DNA of 42,310 nucleotides from Dehalococcoidia bacterium. Lineage in GTDB: Bacteria > Chloroflexota > Dehalococcoidia > DSTF01 > JACRBR01. Shown piece by piece: positions 21,001-30,000 of the stretch (its first letter is position 1; each line of letters begins with the position of its first letter). Where the stretch lies: contig JBGQBE010000025.1 of the NCBI GenBank assembly GCA_041494685.1, forward strand, positions 1-42,310, given 5' to 3'. The position numbers were made by a program.

Positions 21001-24000
21001 ACGGGCGGTGGTTCTTACTCCACGAACGCGACATCGATGCCGCCGAACGGCGAATGTCCACACATCGCGTGTGGGCGCTCTTCATCGCACGACTTCTACC
21101 CGTAGTACGGACCTATGTCGGTTTCGTCGCGGGAATCTTGCGCATGCCGCCGACCACGTTCGCGCTCGTTACGTTCGCCGGCTCCTTCGCTTGGTGCGCG
21201 CTGTTCGTGGGCGCTGGTGCCCTCCTAGGCACGCACTGGTCGGCGATCCGAAAGCCCGCAGAGGGCGCGGTGATCGCCATCGTGATCCTCTTGGTGGTCG
21301 GGCTGGGGGCGGTTACGATCGCGCAACTGCGCCGAAAATCCGCTTGAGACGTCGCCCGCCATGAGCGCTGGTCGGTGGACCTGCTCAGTCTGGTGAGGTT
21401 CGGCCACAGCCCCCGCTAGGTCTGTCCGGATGCCAGACTCACGCGAACTTAACGAACGTCCTCGGCGCCGTCGCTTCCATGATACGTCGACGATCGGTTC
21501 ATCGTGTGGGTGAGATCGCGCCACCCATACGACAGGCAGTTGACGCCATGAGTCGATTGGCGTACCGTGGGCTGCACAACCGAATATCGATGCGCTTGAG
21601 GTGGCCCGAACACCGACGTGAGGGCCAGACAGGGGAAGCCGGTGAGAGTCCGGCGCTGTCGCGCAACTGTAAGCGTCCGCCGCGGCGACGCAAGCCAGAA
21701 TACCTGCCTCAAGTGAAGCCATGAACCTTCGCGTGAAAGGGGCAGGACATATGTTTGAACACTTCTGACGCCTGACCCCCGGACGATCCGTCCGGGGTTT
21801 TCATTTCCCACCCATCTCTCGAAGAAAGGCACACCACGTGTTGCGACGACTCACGCTCGCGTGCGTCGGCCTCGTGCTCTGCGCGACCGGCGCCACCCAA
21901 CTCTTTGCGGCCAGTCCCCAGACCACCGCCGCGACGAAAGCGACGGATTACATCCGTACGCTCCAGAACAGCGACGGGGGCTTCCCCGACTTCGGTGCGA
22001 CCTCGTCGCCCGGCGGAACGATCGAGGCGGAGTTCGCCTTCGCCGCCACCGGCGTGAACCCGAAGAACGTCCTCAAGGGCGGCAAGTCGCCGGCCGACTA
22101 CCTGGCAACACAGGCCGCGACCTATGGCGCGACGGCGGGCGGCGCCGCCAAGCTCGTTGTGGGGCTGGCCACCATGGACGTGAACTCGACATCGTTCGGC
22201 AGCATCAACCCGCTCGCGGTGATGGAGTCCTATTACAACTCGGGCACCGGCCAGTATGGCAGCGGCCTCTTCGATCAGTCGCTCTACATGCTCGCCGAGC
22301 GCAGCCTCGCGCGCCCGGTGCCGGCGGCCGCCGTCACCTATACGGAGTCATTGCAGGGCATGGACGGGGGATGGGAGGACTGTTGCGCGTTCGGCGAGGA
22401 CACGAACACGACGGCGCTCGTCATCCGCACGCTGATCACGTCAGGTGTGGCGCCGTCGAACGCCCATATCGTCAACGGCCTGGCCTACTTGAAGGCGAGT
22501 CAGCAGGCCGACGGCGGCCTCCCGTACGCCGCGCCCGGCGCCTCCGACCCCGATTCGACGGCGTACGGCATCCAGGCGATCGTCGCCGGCGGTCAGAGCG
22601 TCGACGCGGGCGGCGCGTGGGACGCGGGCGGCGGGAACACCCCCCTCACCGCGCTCGTGTCGTTCCAGAACCCCGTGACCGGCGCGCTCCAGTACTTCGG
22701 GACAGACAGTCCGTATGCCACCTACCAGGGGGTGCCAGGGCTGATGCTCGACGCCTATCCCGAACAGCAGGTGTACGCCACTTCGTCGGTCGGTGGTATC
22801 GCCGAAGCCCCGGAGGTTGCGAACCTGCCCGTGCAGTCCAGCGACGGCTCGGGCGGGAACGTGCGAATCCTCGTCTCACTCGCGATCGTCGTGGTAGGCG
22901 GCGCACTCGCGCTAGGTGCTTGGGCGGCGGCGAGCGGCCGGCCGCACAGGACGTAGCCGGATGACGACGGCCGCCGAAACGAGCGGCGCAGTCAGCGCGC
23001 GGGCGCTGCGGCCTGATCGGGTTGCGGCGTCCGCGCTCCATCCCGTCGCGTGGGCGGCATGGCTCGCGGGCGCGCTGGCGATGGTGTTCCTGACGTCGAA
23101 CCCGCTCTATACGACGATGATCGCCCTGGCCTCACTCGTCGTATACGCGGCGCACCGCGATCCCACGCGGCGCGGCAGTGACTACGTGCTTGCAGGCTCG
23201 ATCATGTTCGCGACGCTCACCGTGCCACTGAATCTCTTGACTGGCAGCACGGGCGCCACGCACGTCGCGTCGCTGCCGGCGCTGACCACCCCCGGCTGGC
23301 TCGGCGCCGTCACCTTCGGCGGCGATGTCACGGCGGAGTCCCTTGCCTACGCTGCGGCGAGGGCGATGGCGATCATCGCGCTGCTCGCGGCCGTGTGGGC
23401 CTTCAACGTTGGCGCCGACCACTTCCGCCTGCTCCGGTACGTGCCCGCCGGGTTGGCGCAGCTCGGCGTCATCGTCAGCGTCGGGCTGATGCTCGTGCCG
23501 GCGACGCTGGCTCGGGGCGCTGCGTTGCGGGAGGCCCGCCTGGTGCGGGGGCACCACGGCCGAGGTCCCGCCGCGGTCGTCGCGCTGGCGCTGCCCCTGC
23601 TTTCCGACGCGCTCGAACGCTCGGTGCAGCGGGCCGAATCGCTCGACGCGCGCGGCTTCGGCCGATTGGCGACGGCGCCACGGCCGTGGGAGTCGCTCCT
23701 CGCGGTCGGCGGCCTCGCCGTGTCGACCGTCGGCGCGTTCGCGTCTTCCTATACTGGCGGGGCGCCGGCCGCACTGTGCATGATCGCCGGGATGGCCGCG
23801 TTGGCCGCGGTGCTCCTCCGGCAGAGCGGCCGCTCCACGGCGGTGCGGCTCCACGCACCGCGGCCCGCCGCGCCTGATGTCCTGGTGATGACGGCGACGG
23901 CAGCCAGCGTCGCTATCTTCGCGGCGTTGCGGATCGCCGGGGCTGGCGGTCTTGCGTATCTTCCGTTCCCGACCGTGTTCACGCCTCGGTTCGCACCGTT

Positions 24001-27000: not shown

Positions 27001-30000
27001 AGCGGCTTCTACTTTCTGATCATCCTCGGAGGCTATGTCTTCGGACCGCGCTTCGGGTTCCTGCTCGGCGCGGTGGCGCTCTTCGTCTCGTCGTTCGCTG
27101 CCGGCGGATTCGGACCGTGGGTGCCGTTCCAGATGTTCGCGTCAGGCTGGCTCGGCCTGGCGAGCGGCTGGCTGGGCGGACTGCGCCCCCATCTCGCGCG
27201 GCGGCCGGTTGCCGAACTCGCGGTGCTGCTGGCGTTCGGAGCGCTCGCGGGATTCGCGTACGGCGCGCTGATGAACCTCTGGTTCTGGCCGTACGTCTCG
27301 GCAGGCGAAGGCGTCTCGTGGCGGCCGGGGATGGGCGTCCTCCAGACGCTGCGCCATTATTGGGCGTTCTACGTCCTGACGTCCGCGGGATGGGACATCT
27401 GGGCCGCCATGGGTAACGTGCTGCTGCTCGCCGCGGCCGGGCGGCCCGTGCTCTCGATCCTGACTCGCTTTCGCGATCGCTTTCACGTGTCATGGGGAGA
27501 TCCGCCGCCGGCGACGATCACACGATGACACGTCGTGTGGGTTCGCGGTCCGCGGCGTTCGGCACCTCGCCTCGCGGGCAAGCCATTCGAAGTCGTCCAT
27601 ATCGATGTGGATCACGTTGTTAGCTCCCTCCTCGAGGACACTCAGCCGATCGTGATCGGTGCCGAGACGCTCGGCCATCAAGACATAGAGAGCAAGCTCG
27701 CGTTTCATCGTCGCCTCTTTCATCGTCGCCTCATTGGGGCTCGGTCGCGCCACGTTTGTGGGCTGCGCGGTTCATCGGCATCTCGCATCGATCTTACACC
27801 TGCCGACATGGCTTGGTGCCCGACGCGCAGCCTACGCTCACCGACGATCTCTTCTTGCTCCTCGGCATCTATCACGGTCCTCGGGTCTCCGTTCGCGGCA
27901 GGGCCTTCGCGGACGCAACGCAACCGTCACGGCAGCGACTTCTCCGGTTCATCCGCCGTTCATCCGCGCGCAACAGCCTCGCGTGTGTGCGTCGTTAGAC
28001 TCGCCCGCAAGGAGGTGGCGCACATGAACAAGTTCGAGGTCATCAAGCGTGAAGCAGACGGGCTCGATGTCCTGCGGCGCATCTACGAGCATGCAACGGC
28101 GGAGACGCCTGCGTCTGACATCGCGGAAGACGACCTGGTGCGCATGAAATGGTACGGCGTCTTTCACCGGCAGCAATCGCCCGGGCTGTTCATGATGCGA
28201 TTGCGCACGCCGGGCGGCCGCCTCAGCAGCGCGCAGGCTGAAGCGATCGCTACGTCGGCGCGGGACTTCGGCCGCGGCGGCGTTGACATCACCACACGGC
28301 AGAACGTGCAGATTCGGGGGCTGGAGCTCCGCAACGTCCCGGAGGTGTGGCAGCGGCTGGAGCGCACGGGGATGACGAGCCTGCAGTCAGGCATGGACAA
28401 CGTACGCAACTACGTGGGCTGTCCGCTGGCAGGCCTCGATGCCGACGAGGTCTACGACACGACGCCGCTCCTCGCCGAGATCGGCAGGATGCACCTGGGG
28501 AAGCGCGAGTACAGCAACCTGCCGCGCAAGTTCAACGTTTCGCTGGCCGGCTGCCGCGACGACTGCGGGCATGCCGTCGCGCACGACCTGGGATTCGTGC
28601 CGGCGACGCGAAACGTCGGCGGCACGCCGACGGTCGGTTTCAACGTGCTCGTGGGGGGCGCGCTCGGCGGCACAAGCCCGCGCCTGGCGCGGCCGCTCGA
28701 CGTGTTCGTGCCGCCCGCGCAGGTGGCGCCGCTGTTCCTGGCGGTTCTGCGCGTGTTTCGGGACTATGGCCCGCGCGAGCAGCGCACGAAGGCCCGGCTG
28801 AAGTGGCTGATCGCGGAGCGCGGCGAGCCGTGGCTGCGGCGGGCCGTCGAGCAGGAGATGCGCTGCAGGTTGCTCCACGAGGGCAAGGACGAACGTGCAC
28901 GGACCGCAGGCGACCATCTGGGCGTCCACCGACAGCGGCAGCCGGGGCTGTACTACGTGGGCCTGCACGTGCCCGTTGGACGGATCAGCGTCGACCAGAT
29001 GCTGGAGCTGGCACGGCTTGCGCGGGTCCACGGCGACGGAGACATCCGCCTTACGGTGAGCCAGAACGCGATCATCGCCGGCGTGCCTGAGGAGCGGCTC
29101 AATCACCTGCTGCGTCAACCGCTGCTGCAAGAGCTGCGTCCGAACCCGCGGCCGTTCTGGACCAACCTCGTCGCCTGCACCGGCATCGACTACTGCCACT
29201 ACTCGCTCATCGACACGAAGGACCGGGCCGTCGAGCTGGTGACCGAGTTGGAGCGACGTGGCGTGCAGGTCCCTGACGACACACGCATCCACATCTCGGG
29301 CTGCGTGCATGCGTGTGGGAAACACCATGTCGCCGACGTCGGGATTCAAGGCGCGAACGTGCGCATCGACAACGAGGTCGTCGAAGCCGCTGACATCTAC
29401 ACCGGGGGCAGCTTGCAGGGTGAGGGGCGTCTTGCCCAGCGCATGGCCGAAAAGGTCCCGATGACGGAGCTGGCCGACGCGATCTCGGCGCTGTTCGCCG
29501 AACGCGTGCCGCAGGAGGTGGCGCTGTGAACCACAACGTGGATGTGAACCCCCAGCGGGGGAACCCGCGCGTCTTGTTCGCGTCGTTCCTGTACTTCGAC
29601 TCGAGCTTCATGACCTGGGTGCTCCTGGGCGCGCTTGGCAACTTCGTCGCGTCGGACCTCGGGCTGGGCGGCGCAATGAAAGGAGTGGTGGTGGCGCTGC
29701 CGGTGCTGACGGGCGCCGCGCTGCGCCCCGTCATGGGGTTGGCGACGGATCGGTTCGGCGGCCGCCGCGTGGGGCTGGCCGGCATGGCGCTCACGCTGGT
29801 GCCCCTCGCCATAGCATGGCTGTTCGCCGACCATCTGCCGGTGTTGCTGTGCGCTGGTGTCATGCTGGGCGTCGCCGGCGGGAGCTTCGCGGTCGCGATC
29901 CCGCTGGCCAGCCGCTGGTACCCGCCCGAGAGGCAGGGACTTGTCCTCGGCATCGCCGGCGCCGGTAACAGCGGCACCGTCCTGGCTTCGCTGCTTGCGC

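Follow-up and report, generated by a model that had tools for sequence, protein, structure and literature searches.

The concept that bacteria capture a ligand with transcobalamin-like proteins for import by an ECF transporter is already in print (PMC1796856; 10.1101/864751). Burroughs et al. (2007) described bacterial proteins with a transcobalamin-like soluble-ligand-binding beta-grasp (SLBB) domain and an alpha/alpha toroid, which are encoded in operons together with CbiO and CbiQ and were predicted to be B12 scavengers (PMC1796856). According to the available text of that study, the SLBB domains are frequently fused to the toroid on either side, their hosts lack B12 synthesis, scavenging of B12 or of its precursors is the function predicted for the proteins, and the clade is termed a Gram-positive innovation (PMC1796856). 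The transcobalamin-like clade is defined by a hairpin insert, which contacts B12 (PMC1796856; PMC13385337, as far as their available texts go). In Lactobacillus sakei, the single operon Lsa1836-1840 is described as encoding an ECF S component, a fused AA' ATPase, a T component and separate exported proteins resembling the alpha and beta parts of transcobalamin (10.1101/864751). Here, we describe an operon from a Dehalococcoidia bacterium of the phylum Chloroflexota, in which a Cys-rich SCO2322-type beta domain, membrane anchoring and the link to a riboswitch are new.

The operon is located on the forward strand of the window, that is, the 42,310-nucleotide stretch of contig JBGQBE010000025.1 that was analysed. 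It is preceded by a cobalamin riboswitch aptamer (21582-21725), which covers the full RF00174 model (1-189) with 69.3 bits (gathering score 31.5, E 3.3e-15) and is one of two RF00174 matches in the host genome. An intrinsic-terminator-like hairpin with a T-run (21777-21807) separates the aptamer from the first start codon; its stem (21777-21797) comprises 9 pairs, 8 of which are G-C, encloses a 3-nt loop and is followed by TTTTCATTTC. Hairpin and T-run are likely the expression platform of the riboswitch. Downstream lie co-directional, tightly packed genes for a toroid protein of 372 amino acids (21838-22956), an EcfT-like transmembrane component (22916-24070, with the ATG at 22961 as the likelier start), a fused EcfA-EcfA' double ATPase (24013-25662), a Cys-rich SCO2322-type protein of 338 amino acids (25662-26678) and an ECF S component (26641-27528), whose start is uncertain and could be the ATG at 26737. 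The likely ATG of the ATPase gene at 24067 overlaps the stop codon of the T gene, and the ATG of the Cys-rich gene shares one base with the stop codon of the ATPase gene. Unrelated genes flank the operon, namely one for a VTT/DedA-type protein upstream and those for a nitrite/sulfite reductase and an MFS transporter downstream. The observation reported in the initial annotation, a riboswitch-controlled ECF operon, is thus confirmed as real, except that the six co-directional genes counted there are five; the interpretation attached to it is partly supported, as set out below.

The identical five genes occur in identical order (toroid, T, AA', Cys-rich, S) in 13 of 13 complete order-level loci, as the initial annotation had proposed from fewer loci, and this conservation is far more than expected by chance. 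The system is patchily distributed: it was found in 15 of 40 related genomes and in just 5 of 24 from the host's own family. Fifteen order-level loci were fetched, two of which end before the toroid gene; in all 13 testable loci, RF00174 matches at gathering score on the gene strand, immediately ahead of the gene for the toroid or the fusion, in agreement with the earlier claim. The riboswitch also precedes the system in 10 of 10 further Chloroflexota loci, which were picked from 80 for a full upstream flank and differing taxon labels, and in three of five fusion loci, the other two having none at gathering score. Altogether, it is present in 26 of the 28 loci tested, which is consistent with regulated import of a B12-pathway product, and no additional RF00174 match was found in the approximately 353 kb scanned across these three sets.

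The transporter genes encode the components of an ECF system. The EcfT-like protein reaches only 19.6 bits against Pfam CbiQ (cut-off 25), so the earlier objection that this call rests on a sub-threshold hit is correct for Pfam. However, the only PDB matches of a profile of 15 T orthologues at E<0.001 are EcfT chains (5d3m_D, 8.8e-5; 4hzu_T, 2.9e-4; 4huq_T, 3.4e-4), and these matches span the region with the conserved ESLDARGFG motif. The double ATPase contains two ABC_tran domains (193.8 bits) and exceeds the cut-off of the NCBIfam cbiO subfamily (254.9 versus 211.8 bits), with ECF_ATPase_1 (298.8 bits) and ECF_ATPase_2 (285.9 bits) each slightly below cut-off. PF12822 (ECF_trnsprt) is matched by the S component with 36.8 bits (cut-off 30.7) and by 16 of 16 S orthologues; a comparison of the S component with solved chains, CbrT included, gave no sequence match.

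The Cys-rich protein consists of a signal peptide, an SLBB/transcobalamin-beta-like domain (25728-26186), a Pro/Thr-rich stalk and a C-terminal membrane helix followed by RRR. Its orthologues are conserved in 15 order-level loci by tblastn, and many of its 43 homologues carry a precomputed PF28005 assignment ('SCO2322' in the Atlas). An independently made model of the domain (pLDDT 87.2) was compared by VIA with 48,161 chains; the top five are 3u7z, 4kkj, 2bb6, 2pmv and 5no0, i.e. a DUF4430 structure, haptocorrin, transcobalamin, intrinsic factor and a transcobalamin beta domain, at Z 11.2-11.8, and the next Z is 6.2. Among the Foldseek matches listed, ranks 1 to 13 are all 3u7z or B12 carriers. 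The beta-domain fold that had been ascribed to this protein is therefore reproduced with our own model. In this model, strands 63-65 and 71-74 directly follow helix 52-57, a pair that we assign, on the strength of the model, to the beta-hairpin insert of the transcobalamin-like clade. The statement that the protein has no sequence-level link to DUF4430 holds at the HMMER level, where no match was obtained, but not for hhalign, which aligns it with five Chloroflexota DUF4430 domains at a probability of only 66% (E 5.7e-5, 69 columns, 35% identity) and thereby suggests a modest profile-profile relationship. Against solved chains, the family profile matches only through low-complexity stretches. 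A search with the Cys-rich protein, which the initial annotation called hitherto uncalled, did not list the protein itself among its hits, whereas one with the toroid did.

The toroid protein has a signal-peptide-like N-terminus, an alpha/alpha toroid and a C-terminal hydrophobic helix, which corresponds to the membrane helix at residues 342-366 of the model (pLDDT 89.7). It just passes PF13243 (26.5 bits, cut-off 26.1) and stays well under the cut-off of NCBIfam SCO2321_fam (76.8 versus 300 bits). The described match to the alpha domain of B12 carriers is real but unspecific, as VIA gives Z-scores of 20.1 for intrinsic factor, 19.0 for haptocorrin and 17.9 for transcobalamin, and 25.5 for squalene-hopene cyclase. 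The family profile likewise matches squalene-hopene cyclase at 5e-33 and no transcobalamin, intrinsic factor or haptocorrin chain at E<=1; hence, both fold and sequence place the toroid nearer to squalene-hopene cyclases than to B12 carriers. All 38 family members match PF13243, and just two match PF01122, the eukaryotic cobalamin-binding family of Pfam, at E<=0.01; one relative, P0154, passes the PF01122 threshold (34.8 bits, cut-off 25). The toroid sequence contains no DD dipeptide, so the DxDD motif is absent, as noted before, and the stretch aligned to this site reads GEDTNTTA (family consensus GxDTNTTA).

Linkage of the two surface proteins extends beyond the order. In 52 loci, the sequence extends 4.5 kb or more upstream of the Cys-rich gene. 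In 43 of these, tblastn found a co-directional toroid gene ahead of it, directly adjacent in 34 and with T/AA' in between in eight; Pfam added two more, which brings adjacency or operon linkage to 45 of 52 and bears out the claimed association. In the other seven, neither tblastn nor Pfam detected a toroid beside the Cys-rich gene, and 5 of 39 loci have no ECF genes nearby. The pair remains linked across Chloroflexota, in the company of the ECF genes and the riboswitch, though the order of the ECF genes varies. Natural fusions, which the initial annotation had also reported, were found as single open reading frames in five loci, which share the operon context and three of which lie behind the same riboswitch type, as well as in proteins P0168, P0170, P0172 and P0188. 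The toroid of P0168 is 33% identical to that of the operon (residues 26-308, E 2e-21).

Taken together, we consider it reasonably probable that the operon encodes a dedicated (group I) ECF-type corrinoid importer, which is regulated by a riboswitch and equipped with a transcobalamin-like surface capture pair. Toroid and Cys-rich protein, which both combine a signal peptide with a membrane helix at the C-terminus, would be exposed on the extracellular side of the membrane; the Pro/Thr stalk of the latter would present a beta-grasp (SLBB) domain that is rich in disulfides and belongs to the transcobalamin-like clade. Judging from transcobalamin, intrinsic factor and haptocorrin, the toroid and the beta domain may enclose one corrinoid molecule, presumably cobalamin, another cobamide or cobinamide, and hand it over to the S component. 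Once cellular B12 suffices, the riboswitch would turn the importer off via transcription termination. CbiC, CbiJ, CbiB and CbiM were not found in the host genome (97.6% complete), which encodes CobS and two B12-binding-domain proteins above cut-off and thus looks like that of a corrinoid salvager; the lack of corrin-ring synthesis markers together with CobS and B12-dependent enzymes favours a corrinoid as cargo. The genome also carries a BtuF/BtuC-type transporter, as stated earlier, which is riboswitch-controlled, so that a second B12 importer is not obviously needed.

It is also conceivable, if rather unlikely, that the operon imports a corrinoid without any transcobalamin-like sandwich, with the beta-grasp domain binding alone and the toroid serving another role in the envelope such as glycan or lipid binding or scaffolding. 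Cyclases, prenyltransferases and glycoside hydrolases match the toroid at least as well as carrier alpha domains do, seven of the 52 loci with a Cys-rich gene lack a detectable toroid, and some proteins, e.g. P0169, have no toroid but two or three Cys-rich domains. However, the linkage in 45 of 52 loci and the recurrent fusion of both domains in one polypeptide argue for a joint function, and in animal carriers it is this domain pair that binds B12. It appears highly improbable that the toroid acts as an enzyme outside the cytoplasm, similar to terpene cyclases or prenyltransferases, in an operon not devoted to uptake by capture: its relatives (38 of 38) match the squalene-hopene cyclase C-terminal domain model and its profile finds these enzymes with the E-value given above, but it lacks the acidic DxDD motif of class II cyclases, and the protein, with just one toroid of about 290 residues, is exported and anchored extracellularly, apart from prenyl diphosphate substrates.

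As to the cargo, B12 riboswitches commonly target cobalt importers. A CbiMNQO-like system importing cobalt or nickel ions for B12 synthesis, with the surface proteins as metal binders, would agree with CbiQ as the best Pfam match of T, with the cbiO assignment of the ATPase and with the deposition of 3u7z as a 'putative metal binding protein'. Such a system is nevertheless improbable, since CbiM was not found, PF12822, the family of the S component, is of the general vitamin type, the beta-domain fold matches carriers of organic ligands, and the missing CbiC, CbiJ and CbiB leave no visible use of cobalt in de novo synthesis. The same machine might instead serve another tetrapyrrole such as heme, or a corrin precursor, as claimed for L. 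sakei Lsa1836-1840, where, in the available text, a deletion mutant and docking connect an ECF operon with this layout to heme uptake (10.1101/864751). Although none of the characterised B12 S components matches the one encoded here, a B12 switch upon a heme importer is hard to explain, and its recurrence ahead of the system makes this cargo distinctly improbable.

The favoured corrinoid importer shares its design with several known systems. Transcobalamin, intrinsic factor and haptocorrin (2bb6, 2pmv, 4kkj) likewise combine an alpha/alpha toroid with a beta-grasp domain carrying the hairpin insert, and their halves sandwich one corrinoid; the Cys-rich domain matches their beta half with Z 11.3-11.6 and the toroid their alpha half with Z 17.9-20.1. 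The animal carriers are single soluble polypeptides with the toroid first, whereas here two membrane-anchored polypeptides or beta-first fusions are found, with an extra Cys-rich loop after the hairpin and no HMMER-level sequence similarity. The proteins of Burroughs et al. are also secreted or surface-anchored beta-grasp proteins with a hairpin insert, encoded beside CbiO-like and CbiQ-like genes; the Cys-rich SCO2322 family, Chloroflexota, the split, separately anchored form and riboswitch control are absent from the available text of that account (PMC1796856). L. sakei Lsa1836-1840 has the same set of S, fused AA' and T with two separate exported proteins, but its cargo is argued to be heme, its beta-like protein matches transcobalamin at 99.8% HHpred probability, unlike the divergent Cys-rich type found here, and a riboswitch is unmentioned in the available text (10.1101/864751). 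By this comparison of descriptions rather than sequences, the present system further differs in its Chloroflexota host and in the C-terminal membrane helices of both surface proteins. The BtuFCD-type importer, of which the same genome has one, combines riboswitch-controlled B12 uptake with an extracytoplasmic binding protein, as predicted here, but is a type II ABC importer whose binding protein has an unrelated fold (Peripla_BP_2). ECF-CbrT of Lactobacillus delbrueckii is an ECF-type importer for which transport of cobalamin and cobinamide has been demonstrated; its S component has no sequence match to the one described here, and, in the available text, it uses a shared (group II) ECF module without extracytoplasmic partners, unlike the proposed system (PMC5997447). 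If our reading is correct, an ECF transporter would have gained an extracytoplasmic capture step, which such transporters normally do not have.

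A cobalamin riboswitch aptamer at 21582-21725 on the forward strand scores 69.3 bits against the Rfam model RF00174 (gathering score 31.5) and spans model positions 1 to 189, which is the whole aptamer. Fifty bases 3' of it begins a hairpin of nine pairs, eight of them G-C, which is followed by the T-run TTTTCATTTC (21777-21807, + strand); an expression platform that terminates transcription would be expected to look like this, and the hairpin is predicted to act as one. Downstream of this leader lie five co-directional, tightly packed open reading frames on the same strand, the stops and starts of which touch or overlap; the six genes of the initial annotation thus have to be corrected to five. 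They encode a secreted toroid protein of 372 residues (21838-22956), which carries a signal peptide and, at its C-terminus, a membrane helix, a T-like polytopic membrane protein (22916-24070, the likelier ATG lying at 22961), a protein of 549 residues that contains two ABC ATPase domains (24013-25662, likelier ATG at 24067), the Cys-rich protein of 338 residues (25662-26678) and a 295-residue membrane protein, the S component (26641-27528).

The five genes are contiguous and kept as a block in the loci from related genomes of the order, and the S component is encoded together with its own T and A/A' genes, as is the case for dedicated (group I) ECF transporters. The S component matches PF12822 with 36.8 bits (cut-off 30.7), as do its orthologues in 16/16 cases, and its profile found no match to any solved chain in the PDB, the B12-specific CbrT included. 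Three stretches of S genes had been suspected to be pseudogenes, a reading that was dropped as their in-frame stops are the natural stop codons that end the tblastn matches. The double ATPase exceeds the cut-off of the NCBIfam cbiO subfamily and falls just below the cut-offs of both ECF ATPase equivalogs. The assignment of the T-like protein had been noted to depend on a sub-threshold hit, and as a single sequence it indeed reaches only 19.6 bits on PF02361 (CbiQ; cut-off 25); however, a profile built from 15 orthologues and compared with the whole PDB matches EcfT chains alone at E<0.001 (8.8e-5 to 3.4e-4), and these matches span the coupling-helix region with its conserved Ala-Arg-Gly motif. 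The protein is therefore accepted as a probable EcfT despite its single-sequence score. The operon is flanked by unrelated genes, namely one for a VTT/DedA-type membrane protein upstream and, after about 500 bases past the S gene that carry no assigned feature, genes for a nitrite/sulfite reductase of the ferredoxin type and for an MFS transporter, which lie directly downstream on the same strand (28027-30782) and resemble a nitrogen or sulfur assimilation unit of their own. Two tRNA genes on the reverse strand (31722-31794, 70.5 bits; 32880-32952, 67.5 bits) are likewise unrelated to the operon.

In the Cys-rich protein, a signal peptide is followed by a domain of around 130 residues, a Pro/Thr-rich stalk of similar length (~130 residues) and a membrane helix with an RRR stop-transfer sequence. 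A word-indexed search yielded 43 homologues, 28 of which carry a precomputed PF28005 match, and the nearest clusters in the Atlas, a protein cluster resource, are likewise PF28005, named 'SCO2322'; the NCBIfam model SCO2322_fam (NF040672) gives 27 bits against a cut-off of 85. The family is large, since a search of 1.84 billion proteins with a domain-only profile matched 4,119 representative clusters at E<=0.001. Chloroflexota commonly have the domain and Actinomycetota have it too; the members that were looked up, which come from Acidimicrobiia, further Actinomycetota and Dehalococcoidia, are all named hypothetical. An AlphaFold model built from 37 sequences (pLDDT 87.2) was compared with 48,161 representative solved chains using VIA; the best match was 3u7z, a DUF4430 protein (Z 11.8), followed by haptocorrin (11.6), bovine transcobalamin (11.5), intrinsic factor (11.3) and the isolated transcobalamin beta domain (11.2), while the next row, a generic beta-grasp protein, is at 6.2. 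With Foldseek against the full PDB, the listed rows ranked 1 to 13 are all 3u7z or B12 carriers. The proposal that the domain has the fold of the beta domain of B12 carriers was thus reproduced with a model of our own. In this model, strands 25-32 and 38-45 are followed by a helix (52-57), a hairpin (strands 63-65 and 71-74) and strands 96-104, 107-110 and 125-132. According to the parts of two papers considered here, a hairpin after the helix defines the transcobalamin-like clade of the soluble-ligand-binding beta-grasp (SLBB) superfamily and contacts the corrinoid (PMC1796856; PMC13385337). As modelled, the Cys-rich domain has this beta-grasp core with the hairpin inserted after the helix, and would belong to the clade.

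The initial annotation saw no sequence-level link to DUF4430, which is correct as far as HMMER is concerned: the Cys-rich protein has no DUF4430 (PF14478) match at E<=1, and its full-length profile gave only low-complexity matches in the PDB, such as sigma factors, at E 0.79 or worse. However, when profiles were compared with each other, using five canonical DUF4430 domains of other Chloroflexota, the result suggests a modest link (66%, E 5.7e-5, 69 columns, 35% identity), in which the motifs G-x-V-x-I-x-G and W-x-Y...G-A...DGD...W, conserved in both families, are aligned. Canonical DUF4430 domains are rare in Chloroflexota (4/151 sampled genomes: loci L110-L114 in G127, G154, G132 and G186) and absent from the genome that contains the window; the SCO2322-type domain therefore seems to take the place of DUF4430 in this phylum. 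A hallmark of the Cys-rich family is a longer loop after the hairpin, in and around which conserved cysteines are found (domain positions 42, 72, 79, 85, 87, 89 and 95, and another one at 150). Their simplest reading is that they form disulfides in a domain that is exported. Of these cysteines, C72 and C85 are invariant, and actinobacterial members retain little beyond these two. Positions 79 and 87 are cysteines in 30/34 domain sequences and both serines in the protein of the window, which would fit the loss of a disulfide as a pair.

The toroid was modelled as a single alpha/alpha toroid (pLDDT 89.7). The earlier assignment to the fold of the carrier alpha domain holds insofar as its structural matches include intrinsic factor (Z 20.1), haptocorrin (19.0) and transcobalamin (17.9); however, the match is unspecific, as squalene-hopene cyclase scores higher (Z 25.5) and prenyltransferases and several glycoside hydrolases are level with the B12 carriers. 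At the level of family profiles, cyclases in the PDB are matched at 5e-33, and no transcobalamin, intrinsic factor or haptocorrin chain is found at E<=1. PF13243 is matched by 38/38 aligned family members and PF01122, the family of eukaryotic cobalamin-binding proteins (alpha domain), by 2/38 at E<=0.01, the toroid of the window having no PF01122 match; a single homologue, P0154, which is 36% identical to it, exceeds the PF01122 cut-off (34.8 versus 25 bits, over 206 residues). The closeness to cyclases could be taken to indicate a class II terpene cyclase. This reading was dropped, as the protein is exported and, in agreement with the initial annotation, lacks the DxDD motif: it contains no DD dipeptide at all, and where the motif would lie the family consensus reads GxDTNTTA. 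The toroid is therefore compatible with a carrier alpha domain, yet alone it gives no pointer towards one. The family consensus further contains an LPxTG-like motif ahead of the C-terminal helix.

The Cys-rich domain is present in 15/40 related genomes and in 5/24 within the family of the window's own genome, and the operon is an accessory system. Fifteen loci from the order were fetched, two of which are cut by contig ends; the 13 with enough upstream DNA all show the order toroid, T, AA', Cys-rich, S, and in all 13 an RF00174 match at or above the gathering score lies on the gene strand, 110-230 bases ahead of the toroid match. A scan with one genome per species yielded 309 relatives, of which the best 80, all Chloroflexota MAGs, were kept. 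Ten of them were selected for a complete upstream flank and differing taxon labels, and the riboswitch precedes the toroid gene in all ten. In three Rfam scans covering ~353 kb, every RF00174 match lies at the expected place. Within the order, both the gene order and the position of the riboswitch, as described initially, are thus confirmed. Among the best 80, 52 loci have at least 4.5 kb of upstream sequence, and tblastn detected a co-directional toroid gene upstream in 43 of these, directly adjacent to the Cys-rich gene in 34 and separated from it by T and AA' in eight, as in the window; two more toroids were detected by Pfam, and in the remaining seven loci neither method revealed a toroid near the Cys-rich gene. 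At least two of the T, AA' and S genes are nearby in 34/39 loci with both flanks, the usual order beyond the order of the window being toroid, Cys-rich and then S-T-AA' or T-AA'-S. From these comparisons it follows that the two surface genes keep company while the transporter genes shuffle.

Natural fusions of the two domains, such as had been described before for one protein, were found as well. In five loci, a single open reading frame encodes an N-terminal Cys-rich domain and a toroid and is followed by a free-standing second Cys-rich gene; the riboswitch lies in front of three of them at the Rfam gathering threshold, which is not reached upstream of the other two. Among the best protein matches, P0168, P0170, P0172 and P0188 are also such fusions, and the fused toroids are clear relatives of the toroid in the window (E 2e-21 and 1e-16). 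The domain composition of these proteins varies: P0168 (587 aa) carries two Cys-rich domains and the toroid, P0172 (918 aa) and P0188 (1021 aa) have additional DUF7507 and DUF4397 domains, P0169 (483 aa) consists of three Cys-rich domains in a row and has no toroid, and none was seen in P0171. Lineages also seem to differ in how the surface proteins are anchored; two Anaerolineae loci encode a small protein with a PEP-CTERM sorting motif immediately before the Cys-rich gene (L038:6314-6871 and L080:4097-4714), in L038 between the toroid and Cys-rich genes. A different context is found in the Chloroflexia loci L056 and L066, where a group 1 glycosyltransferase gene precedes the Cys-rich gene and neither a toroid nor co-directional ECF genes are nearby, the ECF genes of L066 lying on the opposite strand.

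As to the cargo, a CbiMNQO-type cobalt importer was considered and judged improbable, as CbiM (PF01891) was not found in the genome and the S component is of the PF12822 type. The genome, which is 97.6% complete, has no match to CbiC, CbiJ, CbiB or CbiM, and it encodes one CobS and two proteins with a B12-binding domain over cut-off. Its gene content thus appears to be that of an organism that uses corrinoids without making the ring, which speaks against cobalt and in favour of a corrinoid, finished or nearly so, as cargo. The only other cobalamin riboswitch of the genome (contig C44, 24740-24903; 35.4 bits) lies ahead of a gene for a binding protein of the Peripla_BP_2 type (130.1 bits) and one for a FecCD permease, which make up a BtuFC-type B12 importer. 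The ECF system would accordingly be a second route for B12, which might differ in affinity or in the range of cobamides.

The observations of the initial annotation therefore stand, except for the gene count, and its interpretation, a split surface trap for corrinoids that serves a riboswitch-controlled ECF importer, is the best available reading, which we regard as rather probable; the main residual doubt concerns the question whether the two proteins act as one binding site, and their exact ligand. More tentatively, and with a slight leaning towards doubt, we propose that the SCO2322/PF28005 family as a whole might supply the beta half of a bacterial transcobalamin made either in two pieces or as a fusion. 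Together with an SHC-like toroid, it would serve a dedicated ECF transporter as an extracytoplasmic receptor for corrinoids. It is bolder still to speculate that a cysteine of the loop beside the ligand-binding hairpin might ligate cobalt, as in BtuM. ECF importers are regarded as operating without binding proteins; if the proposal is true, many of them would in fact use one, and the transcobalamin architecture would be an old and widespread bacterial device for B12 scavenging, well past the Firmicutes. The acquisition of B12 by monoderm and environmental bacteria is poorly known, and corrinoid exchange, on which Chloroflexota often depend, shapes microbial communities. Should the pair bind corrinoids, a large family of hypothetical proteins would gain a function and ECF transporters a documented extracytoplasmic capture module, and the bacterial roots of the animal B12 carriers could be tested by simple binding assays.

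In the article texts searched, no link between SCO2322/PF28005 and the transcobalamin-like clade was found, nor a published report of the family in Chloroflexota and Actinomycetota. The same holds for a separately membrane-anchored pair, for its near-constant control by a riboswitch, for work on the function of DUF4430 among the papers listed, and for cobalamin riboswitches together with ECF and prenyltransferase genes or SLBB together with cobalamin and ECF; a search for cobalamin riboswitches and squalene led, among others, to the unrelated PMC8914203. Nothing relevant was found on SCO2321 and SCO2322, whose family names alone suggest that they are neighbouring genes in Streptomyces.

The core of the initial proposal has, however, already been published twice. 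Burroughs et al. 2007 defined the SLBB superfamily and, in the part of the paper considered here, describe bacterial members of the transcobalamin-like clade as mostly secreted or surface-anchored, commonly fused to a toroid on either side, generally encoded with CbiO-like and CbiQ-like genes, found in hosts without B12 synthesis, and probably scavenging B12 or its precursors (PMC1796856). The closest parallel is the lsa1836-1840 operon of L. sakei, which, according to the portion of the report considered here, encodes an S component, a fused AA' protein, a T component and two separate exported proteins, assigned to transcobalamin's beta and alpha domains (10.1101/864751). This pair was modelled as a heterodimer that captures the ligand for the S component and was noted as an exception to the rule by which ECF transporters have no binding proteins; heme was argued to be the cargo by means of a deletion mutant and docking, the choice between heme and cobalamin being left open (10.1101/864751). 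The operon in the window shares with lsa1836-1840, as far as described there, the ECF S component, the fused AA' protein, a probable T component and the split exported alpha-like and beta-like pair; should the pair in the window bind corrinoids, it would bear on the question whether heme or cobalamin is the cargo of such systems.
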